Sequence record: OQ845957.1
Origin: Escherichia phage pEC-M719-6WT.1
Reading direction: 5' to 3' (one strand)
Length of the DNA stretch: 64,000 bases
Below the pieces are notes generated by a model. That model saw only the letters and a program-made list of their open reading frames with translations, was not told the origin of the DNA and made no database searches. This document shows, in pieces, positions 779 to 63,554 of the stretch. The position numbers were made by a program, and so were the translations under genes. The stretch's first letter is position 1. Every line of letters begins with the position of its first letter.

Positions 779-973
779 ATGCCAACTATCCTAGCAATCC
801 TCTTAAAAAACCTTGGGGCATTCTTCTGGAAGCTTGCACTTTCTCTTCTAAGTGAATACATGATTGAAAAAGCGTTCTTCAGACTTGCAAGATACCTTGC
901 GAGTAAGACTCACACGCCTATCGATGATGAATTTGTAGATAACTTGGAAAAAGCTTTTAAAGGTGAGAAATAA
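779..973 (+). CDS. hypothetical small protein
   Basis: 64 aa ORF, stop overlaps next start (ATGA). Confidence 0.25.
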   Translation: MPTILAILLKNLGAFFWKLALSLLSEYMIEKAFFRLARYLASKTHTPIDDEFVDNLEKAFKGEK

Positions 974-1347
974 TGAAGTGGTTAGAAGATGCTTTCAAGA
1001 ATAATATCGGTGCAATTGTTGTAGGTATTTTCAGTGTAATTGGGATGTACACTACAATGCAGGTCTCTGACGGAAAGCAGGAAGTTTCCGTTTCGACAAA
1101 GTTACAACAGCTTGATAGTTACAGCAAAGGCAACTATTCAGCTATTCGTGATTTACAATCTGACATGAAACTCCTGCAATTAGGCATGGAGAACCAGAAG
1201 GTTCAGTTAGAGAATGTAAAGGGTGAAAACGCCAAGTTGACCAAAACCCTTGATAAATTCTCTGACAGTGTTAACAACCTAGCACAGTCTGTATCAGCTT
1301 TGCAAGCAATCACTGAACAGAACACTCAAAATGCTAAGAAAAAATAA
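973..1347 (+). CDS. membrane-anchored coiled-coil protein
   Basis: N-terminal hydrophobic helix then heptad-like Q/L-rich region; intrinsic terminator follows. Confidence 0.3.
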   Translation: MKWLEDAFKNNIGAIVVGIFSVIGMYTTMQVSDGKQEVSVSTKLQQLDSYSKGNYSAIRDLQSDMKLLQLGMENQKVQLENVKGENAKLTKTLDKFSDSVNNLAQSVSALQAITEQNTQNAKKK

Positions 1348-5795: not shown

Positions 5796-6896
5796 TTATT
5801 CATAATCTCGAATAACTAACCCAACAGGGAACTGTAAAGAACCCTTACGAGTCATCTTCTGGAACTGAACCGTTAAAGGTTTCCCGATAAACTCTTCAGG
5901 ATGTTCAGCAAGATACTGTTTCTTCTCATGGGTAGTCTTCCATGAAACATCTACAAAGACATTAGGAAGAGTCTCTACAACGAACTTACCATGACCACGC
6001 TTATCAGTCTTCACACCAGTTACTTTAAATTCCTCTGTGTGCATCTTCTTATGTTTAATCAGGAAGTAAGAACGGTGACCACACTCATAGAAAGAATCTG
6101 CTGAAATGGAACGGTACATTGCCCCTTCAAACTTCAGCTTAACCCAATTATCATGGGCTTTGTCAAACTCTTCCCAAGAGTTAACACGTATAGTTTGAAC
6201 AGGTACAACCTTGCAAGCATCGCCAAGTTCAACGATTGGTGAATTATCAATGATTTCACGTCGCTCAGGCCAAGACTTAGTGCTATCACAGATATCATAC
6301 CAGTAGAACTTAAGAAGGTGACGGTCTGGATTGTCAGCATTCTTAATCATTGAAACAATATCTTCCAAATCCCAACCATGAGCATAAATCTCACCATCGA
6401 AGTCTGCAACTTGTGGATGGCATTTAAGCAGTAAAAGTAAGTCTGGAATTAACTCTTCAGGTACGTTGTACACAGTATTTTCACGGGAATAAGCTGTGAA
6501 GTTCACTGAGTCAACATCTCTTGAAATCCTGCAACGAACACCATCAAGTTTTGGTTGAGCGTCAGCAGGGAATTTCAAATACTTTGCATGACTAACCTTG
6601 GAAGCATCATGAGCAAGCTGTACACCTACCTTTTCAGTATTCTGTGCAGACTCTTTTGTGTAAGCATAACCTTTGCGGTCAACTTGCTTCTTGTACTTAG
6701 CAGCAACTTCAAAGAGAGCTTGCTGTTCAGCGTTACGCTCATTCTTTTTACCGATGTTTTTCGGTTCTGCTGTGTACTCTTCAAACATCATCTTGCCATT
6801 CTCTTTACCATAGGTGGTAACAACTTTGTCACCTACAGCAACACATGACCAGACGTTAAAGGAACCATCTTTATTTTGTTTGTACAGAATTGTCAT
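5796..6896 (-). CDS. ATP-dependent DNA ligase
   Basis: 366 aa; adenylation motif KLDGVRC (KxDG). Confidence 0.7.
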   Translation of the reverse strand: MTILYKQNKDGSFNVWSCVAVGDKVVTTYGKENGKMMFEEYTAEPKNIGKKNERNAEQQALFEVAAKYKKQVDRKGYAYTKESAQNTEKVGVQLAHDASKVSHAKYLKFPADAQPKLDGVRCRISRDVDSVNFTAYSRENTVYNVPEELIPDLLLLLKCHPQVADFDGEIYAHGWDLEDIVSMIKNADNPDRHLLKFYWYDICDSTKSWPERREIIDNSPIVELGDACKVVPVQTIRVNSWEEFDKAHDNWVKLKFEGAMYRSISADSFYECGHRSYFLIKHKKMHTEEFKVTGVKTDKRGHGKFVVETLPNVFVDVSWKTTHEKKQYLAEHPEEFIGKPLTVQFQKMTRKGSLQFPVGLVIRDYE

Positions 6897-6987
6897 TTAT
6901 TTCTTTCCTCACAAGCTATGCAGCCTTTTGAATAGAAGGAGTGCCAAGCACATCCACCAAAGTCTTCTTCAATGATACTATAAATCT

Positions 6988-7194
6988 TCATTGCCATTTA
7001 CCCTTTAAGTGTACATTAACAATTTGGTGGTCGTAGCCAGTTTTCAGTTTGTGTTCAATAAATTCAACTTTGTGCTTCCAACCATCAATTTCAACAATCT
7101 CACCTTCTCGTGGGATTACCGGATTTCTTTGAGCAACGGTTGTAGTAGAGTGGACAACATCATAACGGTAGATATAGTTTACTAAAACTTGCAT
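6988..7194 (-). CDS. hypothetical protein
   Basis: 68 aa ORF. Confidence 0.25.
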   Translation of the reverse strand: MQVLVNYIYRYDVVHSTTTVAQRNPVIPREGEIVEIDGWKHKVEFIEHKLKTGYDHQIVNVHLKGKWQ

Positions 7195-7203
7195 AGGTTT
7201 TCC

Positions 7204-7431
7204 TTAAAAGAATAAGTCAGATGCTTTTGGAGAATCTTGCACAATACTCCAACCAGTCTTCTGCCAATCATACCCACAATACCATGAAGCCATTGGGTAA
7301 CCCATCTCACATACAATCTTTCCATCTTTCATTTCAAAGAACTCATCAGATGTGAAGTTCTTGTTACGAACTTTCTTACCTTTCTTCATTGCTTCAACAG
7401 CTTCTTCATAAGTCATTTTTGGTATCTCCAA
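7204..7431 (-). CDS. hypothetical protein
   Basis: 75 aa ORF. Confidence 0.25.
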   Translation of the reverse strand: MEIPKMTYEEAVEAMKKGKKVRNKNFTSDEFFEMKDGKIVCEMGYPMASWYCGYDWQKTGWSIVQDSPKASDLFF

Positions 7432-7738
7432 TATTCAATATCAATAAGTTCTTGTGCAATGCTTTTCAGATTACCTTTCGTAGTCTAAGCCCCTGCTCCA
7501 AGCGTCAGCGATTAAGGCTGTAGCTTTATCTTTGCTTCTGATAACTTCATCAGATTTTTCAATCTTACTGTTCACGATGCTCTACCTCTCTGTATGTTTG
7601 TCGGTAATTTATAATAAGTTGTGCCAACTCGTTACTCTTGACGTTTGAACGTAGAAGTTGCCAATCAAAGCCTTTACCAACCCTGCCATATAAGCTAAAC
7701 AGTTTTACCTTGCGTTTCATTTTTGGTATCTCCAATAC

Positions 7739-7951
7739 TCAAAAGTCAATATTAATACGCTCACCCTTAAGGACTCCTGTACGGTCTCTTGCAATCTTAC
7801 CGTCAACAATAAGGATATGTGCAGCCCTTAAAGAGTCACGATTAAAACCTTTTACAAACTTACTAGTCATCACCACAATAAGCATCTCCTGAATTAAATC
7901 TGGAGTGTAGCAGTTGTCGTGGAGTTGTTGAATAACGTCTGCAAGTGTCAT
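7739..7951 (-). CDS. hypothetical protein
   Basis: 70 aa ORF upstream of DNA polymerase. Confidence 0.25.
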   Translation of the reverse strand: MTLADVIQQLHDNCYTPDLIQEMLIVVMTSKFVKGFNRDSLRAAHILIVDGKIARDRTGVLKGERINIDF

Positions 7952-31548: not shown

Positions 31549-31571
31549 AGGCTCCTACTGGAGCCTTTTTA
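31549..31571 (+). terminator. intrinsic terminator
   Basis: GGCTCC-TACT-GGAGCC hairpin plus TTTTT. Confidence 0.6.
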
Positions 31572-35812: not shown

Positions 35813-36361
35813 ATGAAGAAATTCATTTTAGGTTTGTGCTTACTTTTTACAGCACAAGTAGCTGTGGCAACTGACTGCCCTGAGTTAACTATCGGCCAGA
35901 AAGTAAACATGCTTAAAGCTTACAACTATGGCGAAAACAAAATGGGAAAAGGTTGGGGCATTACACTTGCAGCTATAGCCTTACAAGAGTCAGAGTTAGG
36001 TCTTAACCTAGAAAATAGAAAGACACATGATTATGGCATCTTCCAGAATCACTTGAAGACTGTTGTAAAGCGTAACAAAGTTAACCCTAATGTAGCTAGG
36101 AAGAAGCTTATCAGAGACTTTCAATATGCTGCACAGGAGACTCACAAAGAACTTGAATTCTGGACTAAGGTACATGGTACACCAAAAGGGAAGAAGTCTC
36201 TTAAAAAGGTGTTAGCCTCTTACAATGCAGGATATAGCTACAGCATCCCAAAAGCTAGACAGTACTCTAAAGATGTGTATAATAATATGAAAGTGCTTGC
36301 TCAATGTGAGTTTGCAACAAACATTCAAAAGGTAAAACATGAGCGTATTAAGTCAATCTGA
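35813..36361 (+). CDS. secreted lytic transglycosylase-like protein
   Basis: Signal peptide MKKFILGLCLLFTAQVAVA; ALQESELG ... YGIFQ resembles SLT-domain catalytic region. Confidence 0.4.
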   Translation: MKKFILGLCLLFTAQVAVATDCPELTIGQKVNMLKAYNYGENKMGKGWGITLAAIALQESELGLNLENRKTHDYGIFQNHLKTVVKRNKVNPNVARKKLIRDFQYAAQETHKELEFWTKVHGTPKGKKSLKKVLASYNAGYSYSIPKARQYSKDVYNNMKVLAQCEFATNIQKVKHERIKSI

Positions 36362-37034
36362 TAGTGTCCTGTGTCATGCTTATGACATTCAACCACTTGA
36401 CTTAGGTCTGAGTGCAGCAAGCTGGGCAGACTGGATGAAGGAAGATTTTGCAGACACCGCAAGGCTTGTTGAGTGTGAATTTGAAGAGTTCCATTCACCA
36501 AAATCTTTTGTCTGTTGTATAGATGTGACAACTAGAAAGGTTGTATCTGTAAAGCGTGACAGTTTGATACTTGTCGCAAAAGAATTTGACGTTAAACGTA
36601 AGATGGTGCTTACTGATATTGACGGTGTGCTAACACGATTTGATAAGTCACTGAATGCAACTTACTTGCAAGATGGTACTAAATCACAGTACACCAATCT
36701 GGTTGATTCTGTTCATGCAGAAGCTACTTATGTGTTTAACATCCTGAGAGCTATCTCAAAGAATGCTGATATTGGTGTATTAACTGCTCGTGGTGATTCA
36801 CAAAGAATCCCTACTGAGTTGTTTTTAAACGAACATCTTGACAGCATGTACTCACTCTTTATGCGAGGCTTTGGATGCAATAAGATGAGTGCAGAAAGTT
36901 TGAAAGTTCGTATGATTCAGTCTTGCATTCTCCCATACTATGACGTAGAATGTTTTATAGAAGATACAGTAAGGAATGTGCAGAAGGTTAATAGAATCCT
37001 TCCACATATTAAAACAATGATTGTTAAACACTAA
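36339..37034 (+). CDS. HAD-family phosphatase-like protein
   Basis: Motif MVLTDIDGVLT (DxDG[VT]) typical of HAD hydrolases/nucleotidases. Confidence 0.4.
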   Translation: MSVLSQSDSVLCHAYDIQPLDLGLSAASWADWMKEDFADTARLVECEFEEFHSPKSFVCCIDVTTRKVVSVKRDSLILVAKEFDVKRKMVLTDIDGVLTRFDKSLNATYLQDGTKSQYTNLVDSVHAEATYVFNILRAISKNADIGVLTARGDSQRIPTELFLNEHLDSMYSLFMRGFGCNKMSAESLKVRMIQSCILPYYDVECFIEDTVRNVQKVNRILPHIKTMIVKH

Positions 37035-37044
37035 GAGAGAAATC

Positions 37045-37509
37045 ATGCAAAACATTATCACTGTAGCAATTGATGCAACTGGTAACAAATCACAAGTTGT
37101 ACGTAACATCATCAAGGAAAACTTTGATGGTAAAATCTTTCGTGCAGTAAACGTTAAAGCTGACGGAGAAATCCGTGAATATCGTGCAATGCTTAACGTT
37201 ACTAAGCATGTCAAAGGTGTCGGTTCTACTACAGCACATAAAGAAAACCTGATGACCATCTATGACATGGGTATGGCTTCAGAGTTGGGTGCTAAAGGAA
37301 TTGTACAGTCCGGTGCTCCGTACCGCTCTTTCAATCTGGAAACTGCTCTTATGCTTTCCTTTACAAGTGGTTCACAAACTACCACATATCTCTTTACTGA
37401 TGCTGCAACGGTATCTGCCATTAAGGATAGCACTATCAAGGCTGGTGTAGCTGCTGCTGCAAAAGCTTCAACGATGGCTGCAAATGTCCTTGCTAAAGTC
37501 CTCGGTTAA
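37045..37509 (+). CDS. hypothetical protein
   Basis: Start at internal ATG (MQNIITV); Ala-rich C-terminus. Confidence 0.35.
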   Translation: MQNIITVAIDATGNKSQVVRNIIKENFDGKIFRAVNVKADGEIREYRAMLNVTKHVKGVGSTTAHKENLMTIYDMGMASELGAKGIVQSGAPYRSFNLETALMLSFTSGSQTTTYLFTDAATVSAIKDSTIKAGVAAAAKASTMAANVLAKVLG

Positions 37510-37522
37510 GGTTACTATATAG

Positions 37523-37543
37523 GCTCCTTCGGGAGCCTTTTTC
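37523..37543 (+). terminator. intrinsic terminator
   Basis: GGCTCC-TTCG-GGAGCC hairpin plus TTTTT. Confidence 0.6.
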
Positions 37544-37849
37544 GTTTATGTAAGGGGGTACATTATGATTAAAGTTATCAAGATAATACCATCATTGGTA
37601 ATGCTTATAGTAGGAGTAGGTATAATACTTATGCTTTGCCCTGCTTTTTGGCCTTTTATCTTATAAGATTCTAGGAGATTATTATGAAGTACAAAGTCTA
37701 CATTGTAATACAAGGTGTTGAGATTGCTATTGATATCTACTCTGACACAGATTCTGATGATGCTTATGAGCTTGAAGAAGAACTTAGAATGAAAGCCAAA
37801 CTATTATTCCCACATGCAGAATGCTGTTATCTTTAAGAGGGTGAGTTAA

Positions 37850-38197
37850 ATGACATTTAAAGAATTTTGTCAAGCTGCTTTCATAGTTGTTTTTCTGATT
37901 GGTGTAGGTGTCTGGGGAGGTTATTCTTACAAGGATTACCAAGTCACTCAGACAGAGTTGGCTAATCAGAAACTTATCAGTGTTGCTAAGGATGCTTACC
38001 AAGAGGGTTTAGCAAATCTTAGCTCCAGTTACAAAAATGATTTGAAAGACGTGCTTGCTAAAAACAAACACACAAAAGAGGTATTGACATATGAAAAGAC
38101 TAAGCCAGAGTTTTATAACATTTGTGCTACTGATACTTATGTCAGGGTGTTCAACGAACAAAGCGAACTTTACGTTCAAAAACTCCCAAGTAAGTGA
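37850..38197 (+). CDS. i-spanin-like protein (membrane anchor plus periplasmic coiled-coil)
   Basis: N-terminal TM helix; 3' end overlapped out of frame by a lipoprotein ORF (Rz/Rz1-like architecture). Confidence 0.35.
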   Translation: MTFKEFCQAAFIVVFLIGVGVWGGYSYKDYQVTQTELANQKLISVAKDAYQEGLANLSSSYKNDLKDVLAKNKHTKEVLTYEKTKPEFYNICATDTYVRVFNEQSELYVQKLPSK

Positions 38198-38360
38198 AAG
38201 TGATAAGTACACTCAAGAAGAATCACGCTATGTTGTCAAGGGTAATACAGGCACAGACCTGTCACAAGCCCTTGAATTTTATCGTGATGGGTACTATCAA
38301 TGTACGATGAAAGCAAATAATTTGATTGATATGATTTTGTTAGGGAATAAGCAGCAATGA
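38091..38360 (+). CDS. o-spanin-like outer-membrane lipoprotein
   Basis: Signal peptide with lipobox LMSGC (MKRLSQSFITFVLLILMSGC); embedded in 3' end of upstream gene in another frame. Confidence 0.4.
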   Translation: MKRLSQSFITFVLLILMSGCSTNKANFTFKNSQVSESDKYTQEESRYVVKGNTGTDLSQALEFYRDGYYQCTMKANNLIDMILLGNKQQ

Positions 38361-38626
38361 GTCAAGAGACAGAACTGTTCTACACAGAAGGTTATCTACT
38401 TCTTCCAAGACCAAAAGATACTTACATGCGCATTGACTTTATGCCGATGGTTATGGATGATGTGATGTGCCATATCTTTATGAAGGGTATCACAACACAG
38501 TTGAAAGATACTGGAAGAGATTGCAAATTAAAGATTGACACTCATCCAGAAATCAAAGAGAATCACTACACATGGTTCTTAGAAGATAGCAAAGAAATTA
38601 TGGCAGTTCTCAAAACGAGGAAGTAG
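38357..38626 (+). CDS. hypothetical protein
   Basis: 89 aa ORF. Confidence 0.3.
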   Translation: MSQETELFYTEGYLLLPRPKDTYMRIDFMPMVMDDVMCHIFMKGITTQLKDTGRDCKLKIDTHPEIKENHYTWFLEDSKEIMAVLKTRK

Positions 38627-52849: not shown

Positions 52850-52880
52850 ATAAAAAAAAAAAGGCTCCCGAAGGAGCCTC
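52850..52880 (-). terminator. intrinsic terminator downstream of endolysin gene
   Basis: GGCTCC-TTCG-GGAGCC hairpin with long T-run on minus strand. Confidence 0.55.
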
Positions 52881-52888
52881 TGAATATA

Positions 52889-53353
52889 TTACTTTGGATA
52901 TACAGCGTCAAGATAAATTTTTGCTTCCATTCTACGTCTGTTTGTCAGACCCTTAGAAGGTACTTTCTTACCTTTGACCGTAATCTTGTTCCACCATTGC
53001 ATAGCTTCTGCACATCCAACTTTATCTCCAGCATTATGACGCTTGATAAATGTTGAGGTTTGCATAGCTGCAATACCAATGTTATAAGTCTCAATGACAA
53101 GAGCATCAAACTCATTCTGTGTAGTAGGAACTTTAATCGCTCTTGCTACAGCACCAATGTAGTTTTCAACATCTGCCAGAAGATACTGTTCAGCTTGTTC
53201 AGCAGTAATCTTCATACCCATAGTTACTGGTTTTCCGTGGATACGGATTGTACCATACCCGATTGTAGGAATCCCAGCGGAGTCTGGATATGCTTCTAGC
53301 TCAAGCCCTTCAAAGAACTTGATAGCATCAAGACCTTTCTGTGAGAGCCTCAT
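52889..53353 (-). CDS. endolysin, lysozyme-like
   Basis: 154 aa; FEGLELEAYPDSAGIPTIGYG resembles catalytic region of T4/lambda-type phage lysozymes. Confidence 0.65.
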   Translation of the reverse strand: MRLSQKGLDAIKFFEGLELEAYPDSAGIPTIGYGTIRIHGKPVTMGMKITAEQAEQYLLADVENYIGAVARAIKVPTTQNEFDALVIETYNIGIAAMQTSTFIKRHNAGDKVGCAEAMQWWNKITVKGKKVPSKGLTNRRRMEAKIYLDAVYPK

Positions 53354-57894: not shown

Positions 57895-57971
57895 CTCTGT
57901 TTAGCTCAGTTTGGTAGAGCGTTCCGTTTGGGGCGGTAAGGCCAGAGGTTCAAGTCCTCTAACAGAGACCA
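57895..57971 (+). tRNA. tRNA-Pro (anticodon TGG, tentative)
   Basis: 7-bp acceptor CTCTGTT/AACAGAG, T-arm AGAGG-TTCAAGT-CCTCT, encoded CCA. Confidence 0.55.
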
Positions 57972-57978
57972 AATTAAT

Positions 57979-58053
57979 GTCGTAGAAGGCAAATGGTTAG
58001 CCACCTGACCTTCAATCAGTTGCTCGCGGGTTCGAATCCCGTCTACGACTCCA
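57979..58053 (+). tRNA. tRNA-Glu (anticodon TTC, tentative)
   Basis: Acceptor GTCGTAG/CTACGAC, T-loop TTCGAAT, CCA end. Confidence 0.5.
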
Positions 58054-58138
58054 AATTTGACAGAAGACCAAATACAGCAAACAACTTTTACTTTTCGCGC
58101 ATAGAAAACATAAAAAGCTTGGTCTGGTCATTAAGAAT

Positions 58139-58215
58139 TGCGGGTATAGAGAAAGGGCGTCTCACATGTCTCATTAGCATGGTATCGGCAGGTTCGACTC
58201 CTGCACCCGCCTCCA
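58139..58215 (+). tRNA. tRNA with CAT anticodon (Met/Ile2/initiator unresolved); 1:72 mismatch
   Basis: Anticodon arm CATGT-CTCATTA-GCATG, T-arm GCAGG-TTCGACT-CCTGC. Confidence 0.5.
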
Positions 58216-58296
58216 AATTTACAGAAGACCGTTTACAGCAATTCAAACAATTTTATCGGAAAATTAAAATGAATACGGTCTGGTAATGTTAAACAT

Positions 58297-58373
58297 GGTT
58301 AGGAAGCACATAAGGCATGTGCGGTCGGCTGTTAACCGAATGGCACAGGGTTCGAATCCCTGACTAACCGCCA
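58297..58373 (+). tRNA. tRNA-Asn (anticodon GTT)
   Basis: Anticodon loop CTGTTAA, T-arm CAGGG-TTCGAAT-CCCTG, CCA end. Confidence 0.6.
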
Positions 58374-58383
58374 AAATTTAAAT

Positions 58384-58471
58384 GCGTCGTTATCCCGTAG
58401 ATGGAAGCGGTGGTGACTGTAAATCACTTGTCATTACGACTCGGTAGGTTCGACTCCTTCACGGCGCACCA
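58384..58471 (+). tRNA. tRNA-Tyr (anticodon GTA), class II
   Basis: 88 nt with long variable arm; anticodon loop CTGTAAA. Confidence 0.6.
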
Positions 58472-58477
58472 AACAAA

Positions 58478-58555
58478 GGTTATGTAGTTTAATTTGGTTA
58501 AAATACCTCCCTGTCACGGAGGAAGATGTGGGTTCAAGTCCCATCATAACCGCCA
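58478..58555 (+). tRNA. tRNA-Asp (anticodon GTC)
   Basis: Acceptor GGTTATG/CATAACC; anticodon arm CCTCC-CTGTCAC-GGAGG. Confidence 0.65.
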
Positions 58556-58975
58556 ATTTTGAGAGGGCTTTTTAGCCCCTCCCTTAAAGAGTTCTTACGA
58601 GTATTCTTTAAAGGAGCAGAAGACCAAATTCAGCAAGTTACTTAAAATTTCAAGCCAATTTAATTTTGAAAAATTTAAAACTTGGTCTGGTTCCAACAAA
58701 TTTACAGAAGACCGTTTACAGCAATTTAAATCTATTTCTCTCAAAAAGAAAAGGTGAAGGTTCGATTCCTTCACACGTTACGGCGTGTTGGTGTAATGGA
58801 AGCACTTTAGATAATAACGGTCTGGTAATCCTCTTTGCAGTGACTTATGGAGCTAATATATCGTCCCATGAGTGCCGATGAATTTCCTTAGCATGATTCT
58901 AGATTAGCTTAATAGGAAATGACTCTACAAGCCCTTTAGCAAGGTTTGCGTAGGTTACTGCAAAGATGATTTAAT

Positions 58976-59051
58976 GGGAGTGTAGCAGAATGGTGATGCG
59001 GCAGACTTTTAATCTGACAGGCGACGGGTTCGAATCCCTCCACTCCTACCA
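58976..59051 (+). tRNA. tRNA-Lys (anticodon TTT)
   Basis: Anticodon loop CTTTTAA; T-loop TTCGAAT; weak T-stem. Confidence 0.5.
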
Positions 59052-59055
59052 ATAT

Positions 59056-59132
59056 GGTTCAGTCGCAGATAAGGTAATGCAAGGGTTTCATAAGCCCTAT
59101 GAATGTGGGTTCGATTCCCACCTGAACCTCCA
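59056..59132 (+). tRNA. tRNA with CAT anticodon (Met or Ile2)
   Basis: Perfect acceptor GGTTCAG/CTGAACC; anticodon arm AGGGT-TTCATAA-GCCCT; T-arm GTGGG-TTCGATT-CCCAC. Confidence 0.65.
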
Positions 59133-59134
59133 AT

Positions 59135-59209
59135 TGTGGGTTAGCATAAATGGTAATGCAAACGGCTGATAACCGTTAGAAGAGGGTTCGATACCCTCAC
59201 CTACAACCA
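59135..59209 (+). tRNA. tRNA-Ile (anticodon GAT)
   Basis: Anticodon arm AACGG-CTGATAA-CCGTT; T-arm GAGGG-TTCGATA-CCCTC. Confidence 0.65.
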
Positions 59210-59224
59210 ATTTCAATAAAGTTG

Positions 59225-59253
59225 TTGACATTGAGATGTGACTACTTTATAGT
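59225..59253 (+). promoter_or_regulatory. sigma70 consensus-like promoter (TTGACA-N17-TATAGT) inside tRNA cluster
   Basis: Near-consensus hexamers with exact 17-bp spacer. Confidence 0.6.
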
Positions 59254-59486
59254 TACCTTAGTTTTCGTTAGCGTAGCGTCTATTTTGCAAACTTAAAAAT
59301 AAATGCAAACGATAATGTTTTTCTGGCAGTAGCTTAATAGGCTAAACACCAGTGAGGTCTTCCAATCCCTCATCAAAGAATTTGGCGTACTAGCCCACGG
59401 TATGATTAATAAAGTGGGCAACATTCTAAAGGGTATCCCTTATGGGGCTTGGCTTAAATGCAATGAGTACCCTTTAAAATGTTAAT
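59254..59486 (+). ncRNA. candidate structured ncRNA downstream of internal promoter
   Basis: ~230 nt with no ORF and no canonical tRNA fold; nested stems GCCCAC..GTGGGC and AAGGGTA..TACCCTT. Confidence 0.3.
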
Positions 59487-59563
59487 GCACCCTTAGTTCA
59501 ACTGGACAGAGCAAATGACTTCTAATCATTGAGTTACAGGTTCGAATCCTGTAGGGTGTTCCA
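59487..59563 (+). tRNA. tRNA-Arg (anticodon TCT)
   Basis: Anticodon arm AATGA-CTTCTAA-TCATT; T-arm ACAGG-TTCGAAT-CCTGT. Confidence 0.65.
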
Positions 59564-59623
59564 ATTTAATGGTCAAGACAACACTAGTAAGTCATCTTCG
59601 ATACATGTTAAGAGATGAACGAA

Positions 59624-59691
59624 AGTCGGAAAGTTGCTGAAGGTTAGCTACCTTCGATAGTAAGTAGGTTCGACTCCTACCTTGGCTGCCA
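59624..59691 (+). tRNA. aberrant tRNA-like element (~68 nt; D-arm not resolvable)
   Basis: Good T-arm GTAGG-TTCGACT-CCTAC and CCA end, stem GAAGG-TTAGCTA-CCTTC, but no standard D-arm or full acceptor pairing. Confidence 0.3.
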
Positions 59692-59833
59692 AATAGTTAG
59701 CAGATTGCTTAGACGACCTTAACGGGTCTCCGTGTAAGGAGGTGGTCTGTATCTCATGTTTCCAGAGCATGTAAAATATTCTGAGAAGGGGCTTTACAGT
59801 GTTGTGATAATACGGTAAGCTTCGAATTATAGT

Positions 59834-59916
59834 ATGGGACGATGTTAAGACACTAAGGCATGTGCGTAAGCCTCCAAAACTTACTCAAAGGGGTTCGAAT
59901 CCTCCGTCCCATGCCA
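59834..59916 (+). tRNA. atypical tRNA-like element (possible anticodon CCA/Trp; ~8-nt insertion between acceptor and D-stem)
   Basis: Perfect acceptor ATGGGAC/GTCCCAT, T-loop TTCGAAT, CCA end; body 83 nt without a class II variable arm. Confidence 0.35.
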
Positions 59917-59929
59917 AAGTCTTATTAGG

Positions 59930-60017
59930 GGTAGGTAGCGGCTAATGGAAGCCAAACTGTCTTGAAAACAGTTGCCACTGTAGAGATACGGTGAGGGTTC
60001 GACTCCTTTACTTACCG
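59930..60017 (+). tRNA. tRNA-Ser (anticodon TGA), class II
   Basis: Anticodon arm ACTGT-CTTGAAA-ACAGT; long variable arm; CCA not encoded. Confidence 0.6.
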
Positions 60018-60019
60018 CC

Positions 60020-60272
60020 TAATAAGATTTGAAATCCACGCTACTGTTATTACGTGCGTTCGGTTTCCTCTAACGTGTATTGGCGTACACGGCACTGATG
60101 GAGCACCTAGTAGGTGTCACGGAGAAGAGATAGTATCAAGCTCTCCAAAGGTTCTAGTCACCGGATTAAACAAGACTATGCAAAGACTGATTAGGTCTTT
60201 TTAGAGAACTTCTGAGGCAAACTATACCATTGTTGCTTTGGGGTCTTGGAAGTTCTCTACAAAGATTTTAAT
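60020..60272 (+). ncRNA. candidate structured ncRNA / spacer within tRNA cluster
   Basis: ~250 nt without ORF or tRNA fold between two tRNAs; multiple local stems. Confidence 0.25.
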
Positions 60273-60350
60273 GGGAGATTGACGGTAATTGGTAAACCTA
60301 CCATCCTTAGAAGTTGGTGTTTGAGGGTTCGAATCCCTTGTCTCCTACCA
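60273..60350 (+). tRNA. tRNA, class I length, anticodon TAG (Leu anticodon; isotype uncertain)
   Basis: Acceptor GGGAGAT/GTCTCCT, anticodon arm CCATC-CTTAGAA-GTTGG, discriminator A. Confidence 0.45.
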
Positions 60351-60357
60351 AATTAAT

Positions 60358-60433
60358 GCAGGTGTAGCAAAATGGTTATGCGGCTGACTCTTAATCAGTA
60401 AGACGATGGGTTCAATTCCCTCCACCTGTACCA
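60358..60433 (+). tRNA. tRNA-Lys (anticodon CTT, tentative)
   Basis: Anticodon arm GCTGA-CTCTTAA-TCAGT; T-loop TTCAATT. Confidence 0.5.
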
Positions 60434-60439
60434 AACATT

Positions 60440-60515
60440 GGGGATGTAGTTTACATGGTTAAAACGTAAGTTTTGCAAACTTAAGTACAGGGTTCAATTC
60501 CCTGCTTCTCCACCA
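60440..60515 (+). tRNA. tRNA-Ala (anticodon TGC)
   Basis: Anticodon arm TAAGT-TTTGCAA-ACTTA; T-arm CAGGG-TTCAATT-CCCTG. Confidence 0.6.
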
Positions 60516-60521
60516 ATTAGT

Positions 60522-60596
60522 GCATCCATAGTTTAAACGGGAAAATTACAGTCTTCCAAACTGAGGTTGAGGGTTCGATTCCCTCTGGATGCTCCA
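60522..60596 (+). tRNA. tRNA-Gly (anticodon TCC)
   Basis: Perfect acceptor GCATCCA/TGGATGC; anticodon loop CTTCCAA. Confidence 0.6.
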
Positions 60597-60610
60597 AATT
60601 AAGGTGTGAT

Positions 60611-61024
60611 ATGAAAATATGTAGTACTTGCAGAATACCAAAAGATGAAAGCTTATTCCATAAGAATAAGAACAAGAAAGATGGTCTTCAAAGTCAATGC
60701 AAAGACTGTGCAAGACTTCGTGATGCAAAGAGTTATCAAGCAAATGATAGAAGGAAAGAGTCTATTAAAAGCACTCGTAACTTCAAGAGAGAGTATAACA
60801 AGGCTCTAGCTAGAAGGTACAAAGCTTTATGTAAATGTCATATATGTGGTGAGAAAGAGCCAGTTGCACTGGATTTACACCATACAGACCCTTCCAAGAA
60901 AGATTTGAATCCTGCATCGCTTTATTCATACTCCACAAAAAGATTAAAAGATGAAATCAGAAAGTGTATTGTCTTGTGCGCTAACTGTCACAGAAAAGTA
61001 CATGCTGGTATTATTAAAGTTTAA
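60611..61024 (+). CDS. HNH endonuclease (zinc-finger type), inserted between tRNA genes
   Basis: HNH core LDLHHTDPSKK...CANCHRKVHAG plus CxxC pairs. Confidence 0.6.
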   Translation: MKICSTCRIPKDESLFHKNKNKKDGLQSQCKDCARLRDAKSYQANDRRKESIKSTRNFKREYNKALARRYKALCKCHICGEKEPVALDLHHTDPSKKDLNPASLYSYSTKRLKDEIRKCIVLCANCHRKVHAGIIKV

Positions 61025-61025
61025 T

Positions 61026-61102
61026 GCTGCTTTCGTATAATTGGCTATTACACATCCCTTGTAAGGATGGAGATGCGGGTTCAAGTCCTGTGAGCAGCAC
61101 CA
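61026..61102 (+). tRNA. tRNA-Thr (anticodon TGT)
   Basis: Anticodon arm CATCC-CTTGTAA-GGATG; acceptor GCTGCTT/GAGCAGC. Confidence 0.6.
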
Positions 61103-61198
61103 ATTTTGAGGTCAAGTGAAAGACCGCTTGAGTCAACTGAAGACCGTAACAAATTCCACGGAGTTGAGTTAGCGGCACAACTTCAGACCTCTTTCAAA

Positions 61199-61273
61199 GC
61201 TCGCTTAGTTTATATGGTAAAGCCCCATCCTTACAAGTTGGTGAAGAAGGTTCAAGTCCTTCAGCGAGTACCA
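61199..61273 (+). tRNA. tRNA-Val (anticodon TAC)
   Basis: Anticodon arm CCATC-CTTACAA-GTTGG (same stem as 60273 element); T-arm GAAGG-TTCAAGT-CCTTC. Confidence 0.55.
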
Positions 61274-61274
61274 A

Positions 61275-61352
61275 GTTCCAGTATCCCAATTGGCAGAGGA
61301 TGCAAGCTCAAACCTTGTATTAGTGACGGTTCGAATCCGTCTTGGAACACCA
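61275..61352 (+). tRNA. tRNA, class I length, anticodon CAA (Leu anticodon; isotype uncertain)
   Basis: Anticodon arm GCAAG-CTCAAAC-CTTGT; T-arm GACGG-TTCGAAT-CCGTC; discriminator A. Confidence 0.45.
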
Positions 61353-61369
61353 AATTTTAGGAGATTCCT

Positions 61370-61582
61370 ATGAAGCCTTATGGTAGACACGGTAAAGTTG
61401 AAATTGCAAGTTGTGGTTGCTGTGCTTCTCACGATGGTGAAGAAGATTACTACAAGTGGCGTACAGACCATCGTAGACGCTTTCTCAGAAGAGATAAGAA
61501 GAAAGCTAGACAGGAATCTCGAAAAGATATTGCAGAATTAGTTCAAATGGATAGAGCAGCAACCTACGAAGTTGTCTGTTAG
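61370..61582 (+). CDS. small Cys-rich basic protein (doubtful; 3' end overlaps tRNA-Arg)
   Basis: 70 aa with GGAGA RBS but ~50-nt overlap with a well-formed tRNA. Confidence 0.2.
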   Translation: MKPYGRHGKVEIASCGCCASHDGEEDYYKWRTDHRRRFLRRDKKKARQESRKDIAELVQMDRAATYEVVC

Positions 61583-61608
61583 GGGTTCGAATCCCTTATT
61601 CTGCACCA
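61532..61608 (+). tRNA. tRNA-Arg (anticodon ACG)
   Basis: Perfect acceptor GCAGAAT/ATTCTGC; anticodon arm GCAAC-CTACGAA-GTTGT. Confidence 0.65.
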
Positions 61609-61628
61609 ATTTTAAAGAGGCTATTTAA

Positions 61629-62186
61629 ATGAGATATTTGAAGTATGCTTCATGGATTTTCCTAGCTTTGCTAGAGCCATTTGCAGCAATCTTAGCAGTT
61701 ATCTTAGCACCTTTCGTAGTTCCATTCTACAATGAGAAGAAAGGTCACTTACCTTTTGGATTCAGATGGATGGAGACTTATGATAATCCAATTGACGGTG
61801 ACAAAGGCCACGTTGAACGATGGGCTAAGATTCGAAAGATTGGCAAGCTCGGTGTTTATATGCAGAGAGTTGGATGGCTCTGGAGAAACAAAGCTTATAA
61901 CTTCTCTTACCATGTATTAGGGAGAGATGTAAAAGATGTTACTAAGTGGAAAGGTAATATCAACGTAAGTTCTAACCCTGAAGATAATCAGACAGGTTAT
62001 CTCCTGATGTGGAACAGTAATGCTTGGGGATTATTCGCTTTTATACCGTCAATTAAAATCTTTGGTAAACAGTTTTACTGGAGAATTTATGTTGGATGGA
62101 AGCTTAAAAGTGTTGTCCCAGAAGAAAGAGCATTCTCAAGGGAAAGAATTATGTTGGCATTCTTTATTCATCCACTAAGAAAGTAA
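61629..62186 (+). CDS. membrane protein
   Basis: 185 aa; N-terminal hydrophobic segment IFLALLEPFAAILAVILAPFVVPF; AAAGAGG RBS. Confidence 0.35.
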   Translation: MRYLKYASWIFLALLEPFAAILAVILAPFVVPFYNEKKGHLPFGFRWMETYDNPIDGDKGHVERWAKIRKIGKLGVYMQRVGWLWRNKAYNFSYHVLGRDVKDVTKWKGNINVSSNPEDNQTGYLLMWNSNAWGLFAFIPSIKIFGKQFYWRIYVGWKLKSVVPEERAFSRERIMLAFFIHPLRK

Positions 62187-62194
62187 AGATTTAA

Positions 62195-62270
62195 AGGGGA
62201 TTAGTTTACAAGGTTAAAACCTCGGTCTTTGAAATCGAAGAAGTTGGTTCAATTCCAACATCCCCCGCCA
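62195..62270 (+). tRNA. tRNA-Gln (anticodon TTG)
   Basis: Anticodon arm TCGGT-CTTTGAA-ATCGA; perfect T-arm GTTGG-TTCAATT-CCAAC; 1:72 mismatch. Confidence 0.6.
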
Positions 62271-62272
62271 AT

Positions 62273-62351
62273 GCTCCATTACTCCAATTGGCAGAGAGGC
62301 CAGACTTAAAATCTGTGTTATGTATCGGTTCGAATCCGATATGGAGTACCA
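62273..62351 (+). tRNA. tRNA, class I length, anticodon TAA (Leu anticodon; isotype uncertain)
   Basis: Anticodon loop CTTAAAA; T-arm ATCGG-TTCGAAT-CCGAT; discriminator A. Confidence 0.45.
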
Positions 62352-62357
62352 AATATT

Positions 62358-62433
62358 AGCAGTGTAGCATAACTGGCAATGCTCCAGCCTCTGAAGCTGA
62401 AAGATTAAGGTTCAAATCCTTACACTGCTGCCA
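62358..62433 (+). tRNA. tRNA-Gln (anticodon CTG, tentative)
   Basis: Perfect acceptor AGCAGTG/CACTGCT; anticodon loop CTCTGAA. Confidence 0.5.
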
Positions 62434-62464
62434 CTTCTAAGGGTTCTTACGAGAGTCCTTAAAT

Positions 62465-62541
62465 GTGGCCTTATCATAAATGTATAATGACCCATGCTGT
62501 GAACATGGTCTATACGGGTTCGATTCCCGTAGGTCACCCCA
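62465..62541 (+). tRNA. tRNA-His (anticodon GTG)
   Basis: Anticodon arm CCATG-CTGTGAA-CATGG perfect; T-arm ACGGG-TTCGATT-CCCGT. Confidence 0.65.
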
Positions 62542-62548
62542 ATTTTAA

Positions 62549-62623
62549 TAGCTCAATTAGCTTATATGGTTAAAGCGCGTGTCTGAAAAACATGAGAACA
62601 GGGTTCAAATCCCGATGGGCTAC
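62549..62623 (+). tRNA. tRNA-Phe (anticodon GAA)
   Basis: Acceptor TAGCTCA/TGGGCTA; anticodon loop CTGAAAA; weak T-stem. Confidence 0.5.
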
Positions 62624-62650
62624 CAATTATATAGGTGCATAATGAAAGAG

Positions 62651-63376
62651 ATGACAGGACAAGGTAAAGAGATTTTCAGTCTCCTTAAATCCGGTAACGG
62701 GTTCTCTAACCCTCTTATTACTGGTGCAGCAGTTCTTGGTGGTACAGTTGCTGCTTCTCAGTTATTAATCACTTCAATTAGCTCTGTATCAGACCCAGCT
62801 ACCCAGCAAATCCTTATTGCTGCTGGCTTGACAACTGCCTTACTAAGCAGCTTTACAACAAGCCTTGGTAGCACCACTTCAACGACAACTACTTTAACTG
62901 ACTATGGACAGAAGTCTGTAGATGAGTTTTCACAGCGTATGCAAGTAGCTAAAGGTTACTCTAACGTTATGGGAGCAGCAGGTGAACAAGTTGGCTGTAC
63001 ACCGTTTAGTGGAATCATGGGAGTTGCTACTGAATACGGTAACAAGGCTATGGATTTGATTAACACCTCCATAGATGCCGTAAACAGCGTTCTAAGCGAC
63101 TTACAGGATGCAATTGATAAAGGACTAGCAACTATCTCTGACCTCGCTACACAAGCTGTTACAGCGATTAATGAAGGTATGGCAAAGATTACTGCCTACG
63201 CTAATGAAGTGGCTCAGATGATTGCAGATGAAGCAGCAATGATTGCAGAGTATCTAAAAACCAATATTAATGGTTTCCTTGCAAATGTTTTACCAGATTG
63301 GTTTAACGATGATTGTAAGACGGGTGTAATTGATACAATTGCAACTCCAGAGATGAAAGAAGCTCTAAACAAATAA
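62651..63376 (+). CDS. hypothetical membrane-associated protein
   Basis: Track ORF 62579-63376 trimmed to internal ATG past tRNA-Phe; hydrophobic segments LITGAAVLGGTVAASQLLITSI and ILIAAGLTTALLSSF. Confidence 0.35.
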   Translation: MTGQGKEIFSLLKSGNGFSNPLITGAAVLGGTVAASQLLITSISSVSDPATQQILIAAGLTTALLSSFTTSLGSTTSTTTTLTDYGQKSVDEFSQRMQVAKGYSNVMGAAGEQVGCTPFSGIMGVATEYGNKAMDLINTSIDAVNSVLSDLQDAIDKGLATISDLATQAVTAINEGMAKITAYANEVAQMIADEAAMIAEYLKTNINGFLANVLPDWFNDDCKTGVIDTIATPEMKEALNK

Positions 63377-63379
63377 TTT

Positions 63380-63472
63380 GGAAGATTAACCCTAAAAGGT
63401 AAGGGAGCAGTTTGCTAAACTGCCAGTAGCTGAGAAATCGGTGTACCAGTTCAAGTCTGGTATCTTCCTCCA
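63380..63472 (+). tRNA. tRNA-Ser (anticodon GCT), class II
   Basis: 93 nt; perfect acceptor GGAAGAT/ATCTTCC; anticodon arm GCAGT-TTGCTAA-ACTGC; long variable arm. Confidence 0.65.
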
Positions 63473-63478
63473 AATTTT

Positions 63479-63554
63479 GCATTGGTGTCAGAAATGGATA
63501 TGTACCTGTCTGCAAAATAGGTTTATGAGGGTTCGAGTCCCTTCCAATGCTCCA
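63479..63554 (+). tRNA. tRNA-Cys (anticodon GCA)
   Basis: Perfect acceptor GCATTGG/CCAATGC; anticodon loop CTGCAAA; T-loop TTCGAGT. Confidence 0.6.

Follow-up and report, generated by a model that had tools for sequence, protein, structure and literature searches.

The two overlapping genes described here very probably code for the two components of a spanin in a Felix O1-like (Ounavirinae) phage, with the 33-aa and 50-aa open reading frames (ORFs) upstream of them being accessory genes outside the core lysis machinery. They lie in Escherichia phage pEC-M719-6WT.1 (OQ845957.1), of which we analysed one stretch of 64,000 nucleotides, referred to throughout as the window; the features discussed below are collected in Table 1.

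Sequence comparison places both proteins among catalogued spanins. In PHROG, the 115-aa protein falls into family 1152, 'Rz-like spanin' (E = 2.9e-38), and the 89-aa protein matches the unnamed family phrog_4180 (E = 5.6e-47) and, weakly, the Rz-like spanin family phrog_456 (E = 9e-5); the latter protein is also 79% identical to the phage Moogle protein named 'o-spanin', and the GenBank records of mistaenkt and Moogle annotate the homologous genes as i-spanin and o-spanin. Both proteins are at least 85% alike to the Felix O1 entries of the published spanin database. The accompanying survey lists '(Felix01, FO1a, UAB_phi87)' and '(FSL_SP-010, FSL_SP-012)' among overlapped two-component spanins (Kongari et al. 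2018, PMC6139136), and its supplement, SpaninDB, classifies Felix01, FO1a, FSL SP-010 and Moogle as 'ovl', giving for these phages a 115-aa i-spanin (p014 in Felix O1), an o-spanin of 89 aa whose signal has 19 aa and whose lipobox is TMSG/C, an overlap of 107 nt and one periplasmic Cys in each protein (PMC6139136). The geometry of the pair in the window is identical to that of the Felix O1 entry. A preliminary description of the window had read these ORFs as a spanin pair, and the family matches and identities bear this out; the pair is an ordinary, already catalogued module of Felix O1-like phages, and the one uncommon trait of the locus is the presence of the two small accessory ORFs ahead of it.

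The surrounding DNA points to the same group. A region of ~1.3 kb around the spanin locus matched 256 phage records, almost all of them from Ounavirinae, here the Felix O1-like myophages that infect Escherichia, Salmonella, Shigella and Citrobacter. This region was closest to the Suspvirus members CHB7, SUSP2 and mistaenkt, at ~96% identity. By these comparisons, the window is a distinct member of the well-known Felix O1-like (Ounavirinae) group, because over 25 kb it is only 80–86% identical to CHB7, SUSP2 and mistaenkt, across about half its length. The gene order of rIIB, polynucleotide kinase, a 154-aa gene and then the spanins is common to Felix O1-type relatives. The 154-aa gene (phrog_2267) appears in the program-made ORF list at 37021–37509 (+) as 162 aa from a TTG, and relatives annotate it as 154 aa from an ATG (MQNIITV...); the shorter, ATG-started form is probably the correct one. 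On the other side of the pair, the ATG of the conserved downstream gene overlaps the o-spanin stop codon (ATGA), an arrangement that suggests translational coupling. No Rfam family was found in the spanin region. Elsewhere in the window, 24 tRNA genes are clustered at 57895–63551 (+), as is typical of Felix O1-like genomes.

Table 1 Coordinates of the spanin locus and of other lysis-related features in the window (SD, Shine-Dalgarno-like motif)
Feature	Position	Strand	Length	Basis or remark
Putative holin homologue	973–1347	+	124 aa	96% identity to Moogle 'putative holin'; PHROG 4038
Polynucleotide kinase gene	36339–37034	+		Just upstream of spanin locus
Intrinsic-terminator-like hairpin	37521–37548	+		GGCTCC-TTCG-GGAGCC plus T run; 7-bp stem, 5 GC pairs; fold
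SD AAGGGGG	37552–37558	+		Ahead of 33-aa ORF
Hydrophobic ORF, MIKVIKIIPSLVMLIVGVGIILMLCPAFWPFIL	37565–37666	+	33 aa	Single hydrophobic helix, no charged tail
SD TAGGAG	37673–37678	+		Ahead of 50-aa ORF
Acidic ORF	37684–37836	+	50 aa	11 acidic residues; same position as SUSP2 gp084 (52 aa), a distant homologue in sequence
SD GAGGGTGAG	37837–37845	+		Ahead of i-spanin ORF 37850–38197
i-spanin (predicted)	37850–38197	+	115 aa	N-terminal transmembrane (TM) helix; phrog_1152 Rz-like spanin; hydropathy; annotation of relatives
SD AAGAGG	38076–38081	+		Ahead of o-spanin ORF 38091–38360
o-spanin (predicted)	38091–38360	+	89 aa	Lipoprotein signal; phrog_4180, phrog_456; 79% identical to Moogle 'o-spanin'
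Dual-coding overlap	38091–38197	+	107 nt	o-spanin in +1 frame relative to i-spanin
Conserved downstream gene	38357–38626	+	89 aa	phrog_4391
Endolysin, GH24 phage lysozyme	52889–53353	-	154 aa	PF00959 E = 1.7e-38; phrog_7 endolysin E = 8.5e-55

The variable slot upstream of the spanin genes

Our comparison set comprised 33 loci: 29 from IMG/VR, three GenBank relatives and the window itself. The terminator-like hairpin that closes the upstream gene is conserved in relatives and forms the left border of a slot of variable content. Between the hairpin and the i-spanin start, 27 of the 33 loci have 24 nt and no ORF, and these empty-slot phages include Felix O1 and the closest relatives of the window, mistaenkt and CHB7. 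Where the slot is filled, SUSP2 carries a 52-aa ORF, ESh19 and two metagenomic contigs carry the 33-aa ORF only, and one Logan contig carries the 50-aa ORF only; the window alone has both, and the two cassettes are thus found in all four combinations, namely none, one, the other and both. Between lineages, the cassettes are 95–97% identical at the nucleotide level, compared with 83–85% for the flanking spanin genes, which suggests recent lateral exchange of cassettes of ~120–170 bp. We propose that the 33-aa and 50-aa genes, which would be dispensable, have been dropped into a recombination-prone slot between the terminator hairpin and the spanin ribosome-binding site. A Shine-Dalgarno-like motif lies 4–9 nt before each of the four ORFs of the locus, and the stretch from the upstream terminator to the spanin genes yielded no sigma-70-type promoter.

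One 22-nt terminator hairpin, AGGCTCCTTCGGGAGCCTTTTT, is present in two identical copies in the window, at 37521–37542 (+) before the spanin slot and at 52858–52879 (-) right after the endolysin gene, and near-copies are located at 31549 and 35729. Within ~20–30 nt after each copy come the Shine-Dalgarno motif and the ATG with which the next gene begins, and the identity between copies stops at the hairpin ends. This hairpin may be a reused regulatory cassette as well as a site for short-homology recombination.

The preliminary description had placed the 33-aa ORF and both spanin ORFs correctly, and it had listed an acidic 50-aa ORF at 37683–37835, which exists but with coordinates one base off. 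Its grouping of the small ORFs as 'tiny hydrophobic ORFs' holds for the 33-aa ORF, with a Kyte-Doolittle value of 3.12 over residues 11–25, but fails for the acidic, soluble 50-aa ORF.

Four copies of the 33-aa ORF are known, from the window and three other Ounavirinae sequences, always in the spanin slot. Their peptides are 100% identical, and the three variable nucleotide positions are all synonymous third positions; the non-coding flanks of the cassette vary between copies. An exhaustive phmmer search against 1.84 billion representative proteins returned only the peptide itself, and no match was found in Pfam, PHROG or NCBIfam. Searching with a back-translated DNA pattern gave genuine copies of the ORF in an IMG/VR contig and in two metagenome records, one of which is the same contig; the other pattern matches (10 of 10 from bacterial genomes and five of seven from metagenomes) were rejected as chance occurrences of CPAFWPFI in unrelated frames. 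An antisense ORF at 37546–37713 was likewise rejected, since the variable sites are non-synonymous in that frame and the ORF is not conserved.

For the 50-aa ORF, we found one 94%-identical match in 5.8 billion proteins, located in the same slot of the Logan contig that lacks the 33-aa ORF; of the seven nucleotide differences between these copies, four are synonymous and three conservative. The protein is 40% identical to SUSP2 gp084, which has 52 aa and occupies the same position. A tblastn search against GenBank phages gave no match at E <= 1, and family searches gave only weak hits to phrog_20371 and DUF6324, below any useful threshold. Neither small ORF has a paralogue elsewhere in the window. 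Judging from these patterns, both are probably expressed orphan accessory genes that are rare.

The preliminary description had named the small ORFs together with the spanin pair; the comparative data offer no grounds for including them in the lysis genes. A core lysis role is argued against, because the slot is empty in 27 of the 33 loci. A weaker form of the idea would make the 33-aa ORF, with or without the 50-aa ORF, a lysis accessory factor, either as a membrane peptide tuning the timing of holin or spanin action or as an antiholin- or holin-like protein co-transcribed with the spanins. Consistent with such a role, the ORF lies just upstream of the i-spanin gene in the same orientation, has a strong ribosome-binding site, encodes a single helix of TM length, occupies exactly that position in all four known copies, and differs between them by synonymous changes only. 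We nevertheless consider this unlikely, as the phages with an empty slot, Felix O1, mistaenkt and CHB7 among them, are viable lytic phages, and the 33-aa and 50-aa cassettes occur independently of each other, the latter encoding a soluble, acidic protein. Nor does the peptide resemble a holin: it ends in ...CPAFWPFIL with no acidic or basic residue after K6, and so lacks the charged C-terminal tail typical of holins, it matches no Pfam, PHROGs or NCBIfam family, the endolysin gene is 15 kb away, and the ORF is absent in most relatives.

Similarly, it seems improbable that the 33-aa peptide represents a new kind of small membrane peptide, one that influences how spanins or holins act (in lysis timing or by guarding against premature membrane fusion) or that excludes superinfecting phage. 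If this were true, the window would be the only known genome pairing the peptide with a 50-aa acidic partner ORF, and a peptide that affected lysis would be a modestly interesting new lysis regulator. As accessory genes, the small ORFs make the slot a minor example of phage genomes acquiring orphan micro-genes in the space that separates a terminator from the ribosome-binding site after it.

An overlapped gene pair with both frames under selection

The o-spanin gene starts before the i-spanin stop codon and ends 163 nt beyond it, and is therefore not contained wholly inside the i-spanin gene. Since it overshoots the i-spanin stop in this way, the architecture is 'overlapped' and not the 'embedded' one of lambda; the preliminary description had correctly seen an out-of-frame 3' overlap, but had assigned it to the embedded Rz/Rz1 type. 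The arrangement is invariant in the comparison set. In all 33 loci, the i-spanin has 115 aa and the o-spanin has 89 aa, starting at +241, with a lipobox of the form [LIT][MI]SGC, and the o-spanin start codon, AAGAGG motif and signal peptide are kept throughout.

The i-spanin is a small protein with a single predicted N-terminal TM domain (approximately residues 6–26), where the maximum of the 19-residue Kyte-Doolittle profile reaches 2.01 at residues 6–24, in line with the helix noted in the preliminary description. It is followed by a hydrophilic domain of 88 aa that is predicted to be periplasmic, and this layout is kept in the 33 loci. The o-spanin N-terminus, MKRLSQSFITFVLLILMSG directly before the lipobox Cys, consists of a basic n-region, a hydrophobic core and the lipobox, together forming a 19-aa lipoprotein signal ending in LMSG/C; the Cys is invariant, and conservation of the lipobox in 33 of 33 loci upholds the earlier recognition of LMSGC. 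NCBIfam lipoprotein-signal matches to the o-spanin were weak, and lipobox position -3 is Met or Ile in many members, compared with the classical Leu/Val/Ile set. The mature o-spanin would have 70 aa, beginning C-S-T, without proline and with one further Cys (C71). Outer-membrane sorting is predicted, because the residue at +2 is Ser, not Asp, and this Ser21 is invariant across the loci. Each protein has one invariant periplasmic Cys in the 33 loci, C92 in the i-spanin and C71 in the o-spanin.

AlphaFold models of the two proteins are of low confidence, with pLDDT values of 53 (i-spanin) and 56.5 (o-spanin), because the alignments are shallow. At these values, the i-spanin is modelled as mostly helical from residue 39 to 111, and the o-spanin as a disordered linker followed by a C-terminal helix. 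The coiled-coil table of SpaninDB apparently gives 0 segments for the Felix01 i-spanin and 1 for that of Moogle (Kongari et al. 2018, PMC6139136).

Our assignment of spanin function draws on the targeting signals, the gene arrangement and annotation; in the literature on the Felix O1 family, we found no experimental test of the spanins. The same two proteins could in principle be a membrane protein and a lipoprotein with a role outside lysis, for example in superinfection exclusion or receptor blocking (compare the Llp/Cor-type phage lipoproteins), with the true spanin located elsewhere or absent. Such a role would be compatible with a family whose function is predicted from sequence, whose members show no homology to spanins studied by experiment (Rz/Rz1, PseT.3/PseT.2), and whose o-spanin has no proline and a C-terminal helix predicted at low confidence only. 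We regard it as very improbable, however, given that a gene for a type II membrane protein together with an out-of-frame overlapping gene for an outer-membrane lipoprotein is the defining signature of spanins and is invariant across the subfamily, that PHROG and expert (CPT, SpaninDB) annotations concur, and that the protein sizes suit a periplasm-spanning pair.

The functional class of two-component spanins (Summer 2007; Kongari 2018) takes in adjacent, overlapped and embedded gene pairs in which both members are coding. Here, the two genes share the 107-nt overlap in the +1 frame. Among the 30 distinct sequences of the 33 loci, pN/pS was 0.15 where the DNA codes for the i-spanin only and 0.12 where it codes for the o-spanin only (159 nt past the i-spanin stop); the latter segment gave ~2 in each of its two wrong frames. 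On these sequences, apparent synonymous diversity collapsed to 0.08–0.11 within the overlap, compared with 0.41–0.58 in the flanks, as expected if both frames are constrained. Both frames are under purifying selection. On this evidence, the spanin pair is more than a chance arrangement of ORFs, because its lengths, overlap and lipobox are kept in every locus and pN/pS is far from that of the wrong frames.

Correctly called, the o-spanin gene starts with the ATG at 38091, the sole start that gives a full lipoprotein signal peptide. In the mistaenkt record MN850587 (2967–3173), the o-spanin begins at MSGC and has 68 aa without a signal peptide; SUSP2 RefSeq NC_028935 (3074–3343) has no CDS annotated for it, and many o-spanin proteins in databases are truncated forms of 68–73 aa. 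We attribute these truncated or omitted annotations to the known tendency of gene callers to disfavour genes that overlap (Kongari et al. 2018, PMC6139136). Although such omissions and shortened calls might be taken to mean that the second frame, 38091–38360, is an untranslated chance ORF, the pN/pS analysis effectively refutes that reading, and the retention of the start codon, AAGAGG, signal peptide and lipobox in 33 of 33 loci also speaks against it. The main value of our analysis is thus in annotation, with a standard Felix O1-type spanin pair confirmed and its o-spanin start set.

Scattered lysis genes and a proposed lysis pathway

The endolysin gene sits in the tail/structural gene block, ~14.5–15 kb from the spanin pair, and its product has no evident signal sequence; its identification as a lysozyme-type endolysin far from the spanins, already made in the preliminary description, agrees with the family matches in Table 1. 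The putative holin homologue lies 36 kb from the spanins and has one N-terminal TM helix and a long helical tail. A 64-aa ORF at 779–973 (+), which belongs to phrog_402 and has a hydrophobic N-terminus, overlaps this gene by one base, and the two could be a holin/antiholin-type couple.

With the holin homologue at one end of the window, the endolysin in the structural block and the spanins after rIIB and the kinase, the dispersal of lysis functions that the preliminary description had suspected is real. It has also been described before, the lysis genes of Felix O1-like phages being scattered according to the Moogle genome paper (PMC4319497), and is a published trait of these phages, not a peculiarity of the window.

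We propose that the N-terminal helix would hold the i-spanin in the inner membrane, with the 88-residue domain reaching into the periplasm. After export of the 89-aa o-spanin precursor, Cys20 would be lipidated and signal peptidase II would remove the signal; given the Ser at +2, the lipoprotein would then be sorted to the outer membrane. The periplasmic domains may bind one another to form a bridge across the periplasm, caged in the peptidoglycan mesh. C92 and C71 probably form intermolecular disulfides. In lysis, the holin, for which 973–1347 is the candidate, would permeabilise the inner membrane, the soluble lysozyme encoded at 52889–53353 would degrade the wall, and the spanin complexes freed in this way would fuse the inner and outer membranes, completing lysis.

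Comparison with known spanin systems

Phage T4, with the 'separated' spanins PseT.3/PseT.2, resembles the window in several respects. In both phages, lysis genes are scattered around the genome, and the spanin genes lie within 1 kb of a polynucleotide kinase gene (pseT, pseT.2 and pseT.3 in T4; we compared the T4 stretch 6003–7782). The i-spanins are similar in size, with 115 aa in the window and 117 aa in T4, and an o-spanin with a predicted C-terminal helix is present in both. However, the T4 spanin genes are separated while those of the window overlap, the periplasmic Cys number 0 + 2 in T4 and 1 + 1 in the window, and the kinase and spanin genes stand in the opposite order. Homology was examined because the kinase adjoins the spanins in both phages, and was rejected: hhalign gave probabilities of 0.45% and 6.9%, and the proteins belong to different PHROGs (739/812 in T4, 1152/4180 in the window). 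The shared proximity to a kinase could be a coincidence or an old shared neighbourhood.

Lambda Rz/Rz1, the 'embedded' system, has the same functional design, with a type II inner-membrane protein and an outer-membrane lipoprotein encoded in the +1 frame. The o-spanin gene of the window differs in its 163-nt overhang, and its mature product has no proline and a C-terminal helix predicted in a low-confidence model, whereas Rz1 is proline-rich and unstructured; the i-spanin has one periplasmic Cys instead of two. Neither protein matched the Pfam families for Rz and Rz1 (PF03245, PF06085), even at E <= 1, so we rejected membership in the lambda sequence families and retain Rz/Rz1 as a functional analogue.

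LysB/LysC of phage P2, which presumably sit in a lysis cassette together with holin and endolysin, show no sequence similarity to the pair by any family search, and the spanin genes of the window are isolated. LysB/LysC is the prototype of the 'overlapped' class (Kongari 2018, PMC6139136), to which the window pair also belongs, as its o-spanin gene begins within the i-spanin gene, out of frame, and outruns it; the two pairs presumably share their function as well.

The closest systems are those of the Felix O1 group, comprising p014 and the o-spanin of Felix O1 and the pairs of FO1a, FSL SP-010/012, Moogle and Mushroom (SpaninDB, PMC6139136), which belong to the same families at ~80–98% identity. 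They share with the window the 115-aa and 89-aa proteins, the 107-nt +1 overlap, the 19-aa signal, the xMSG/C lipobox and the genomic neighbourhood, and in them, too, both proteins have one periplasmic Cys each. The window differs from them only by point substitutions and by the two small ORFs between the upstream terminator and the i-spanin start; in Felix O1 and most relatives, this interval is a gap of 24 nt. Taken together, these comparisons place the pair in the functional class of spanins and in the Felix O1 sequence family, and not in the sequence families of lambda or T4.
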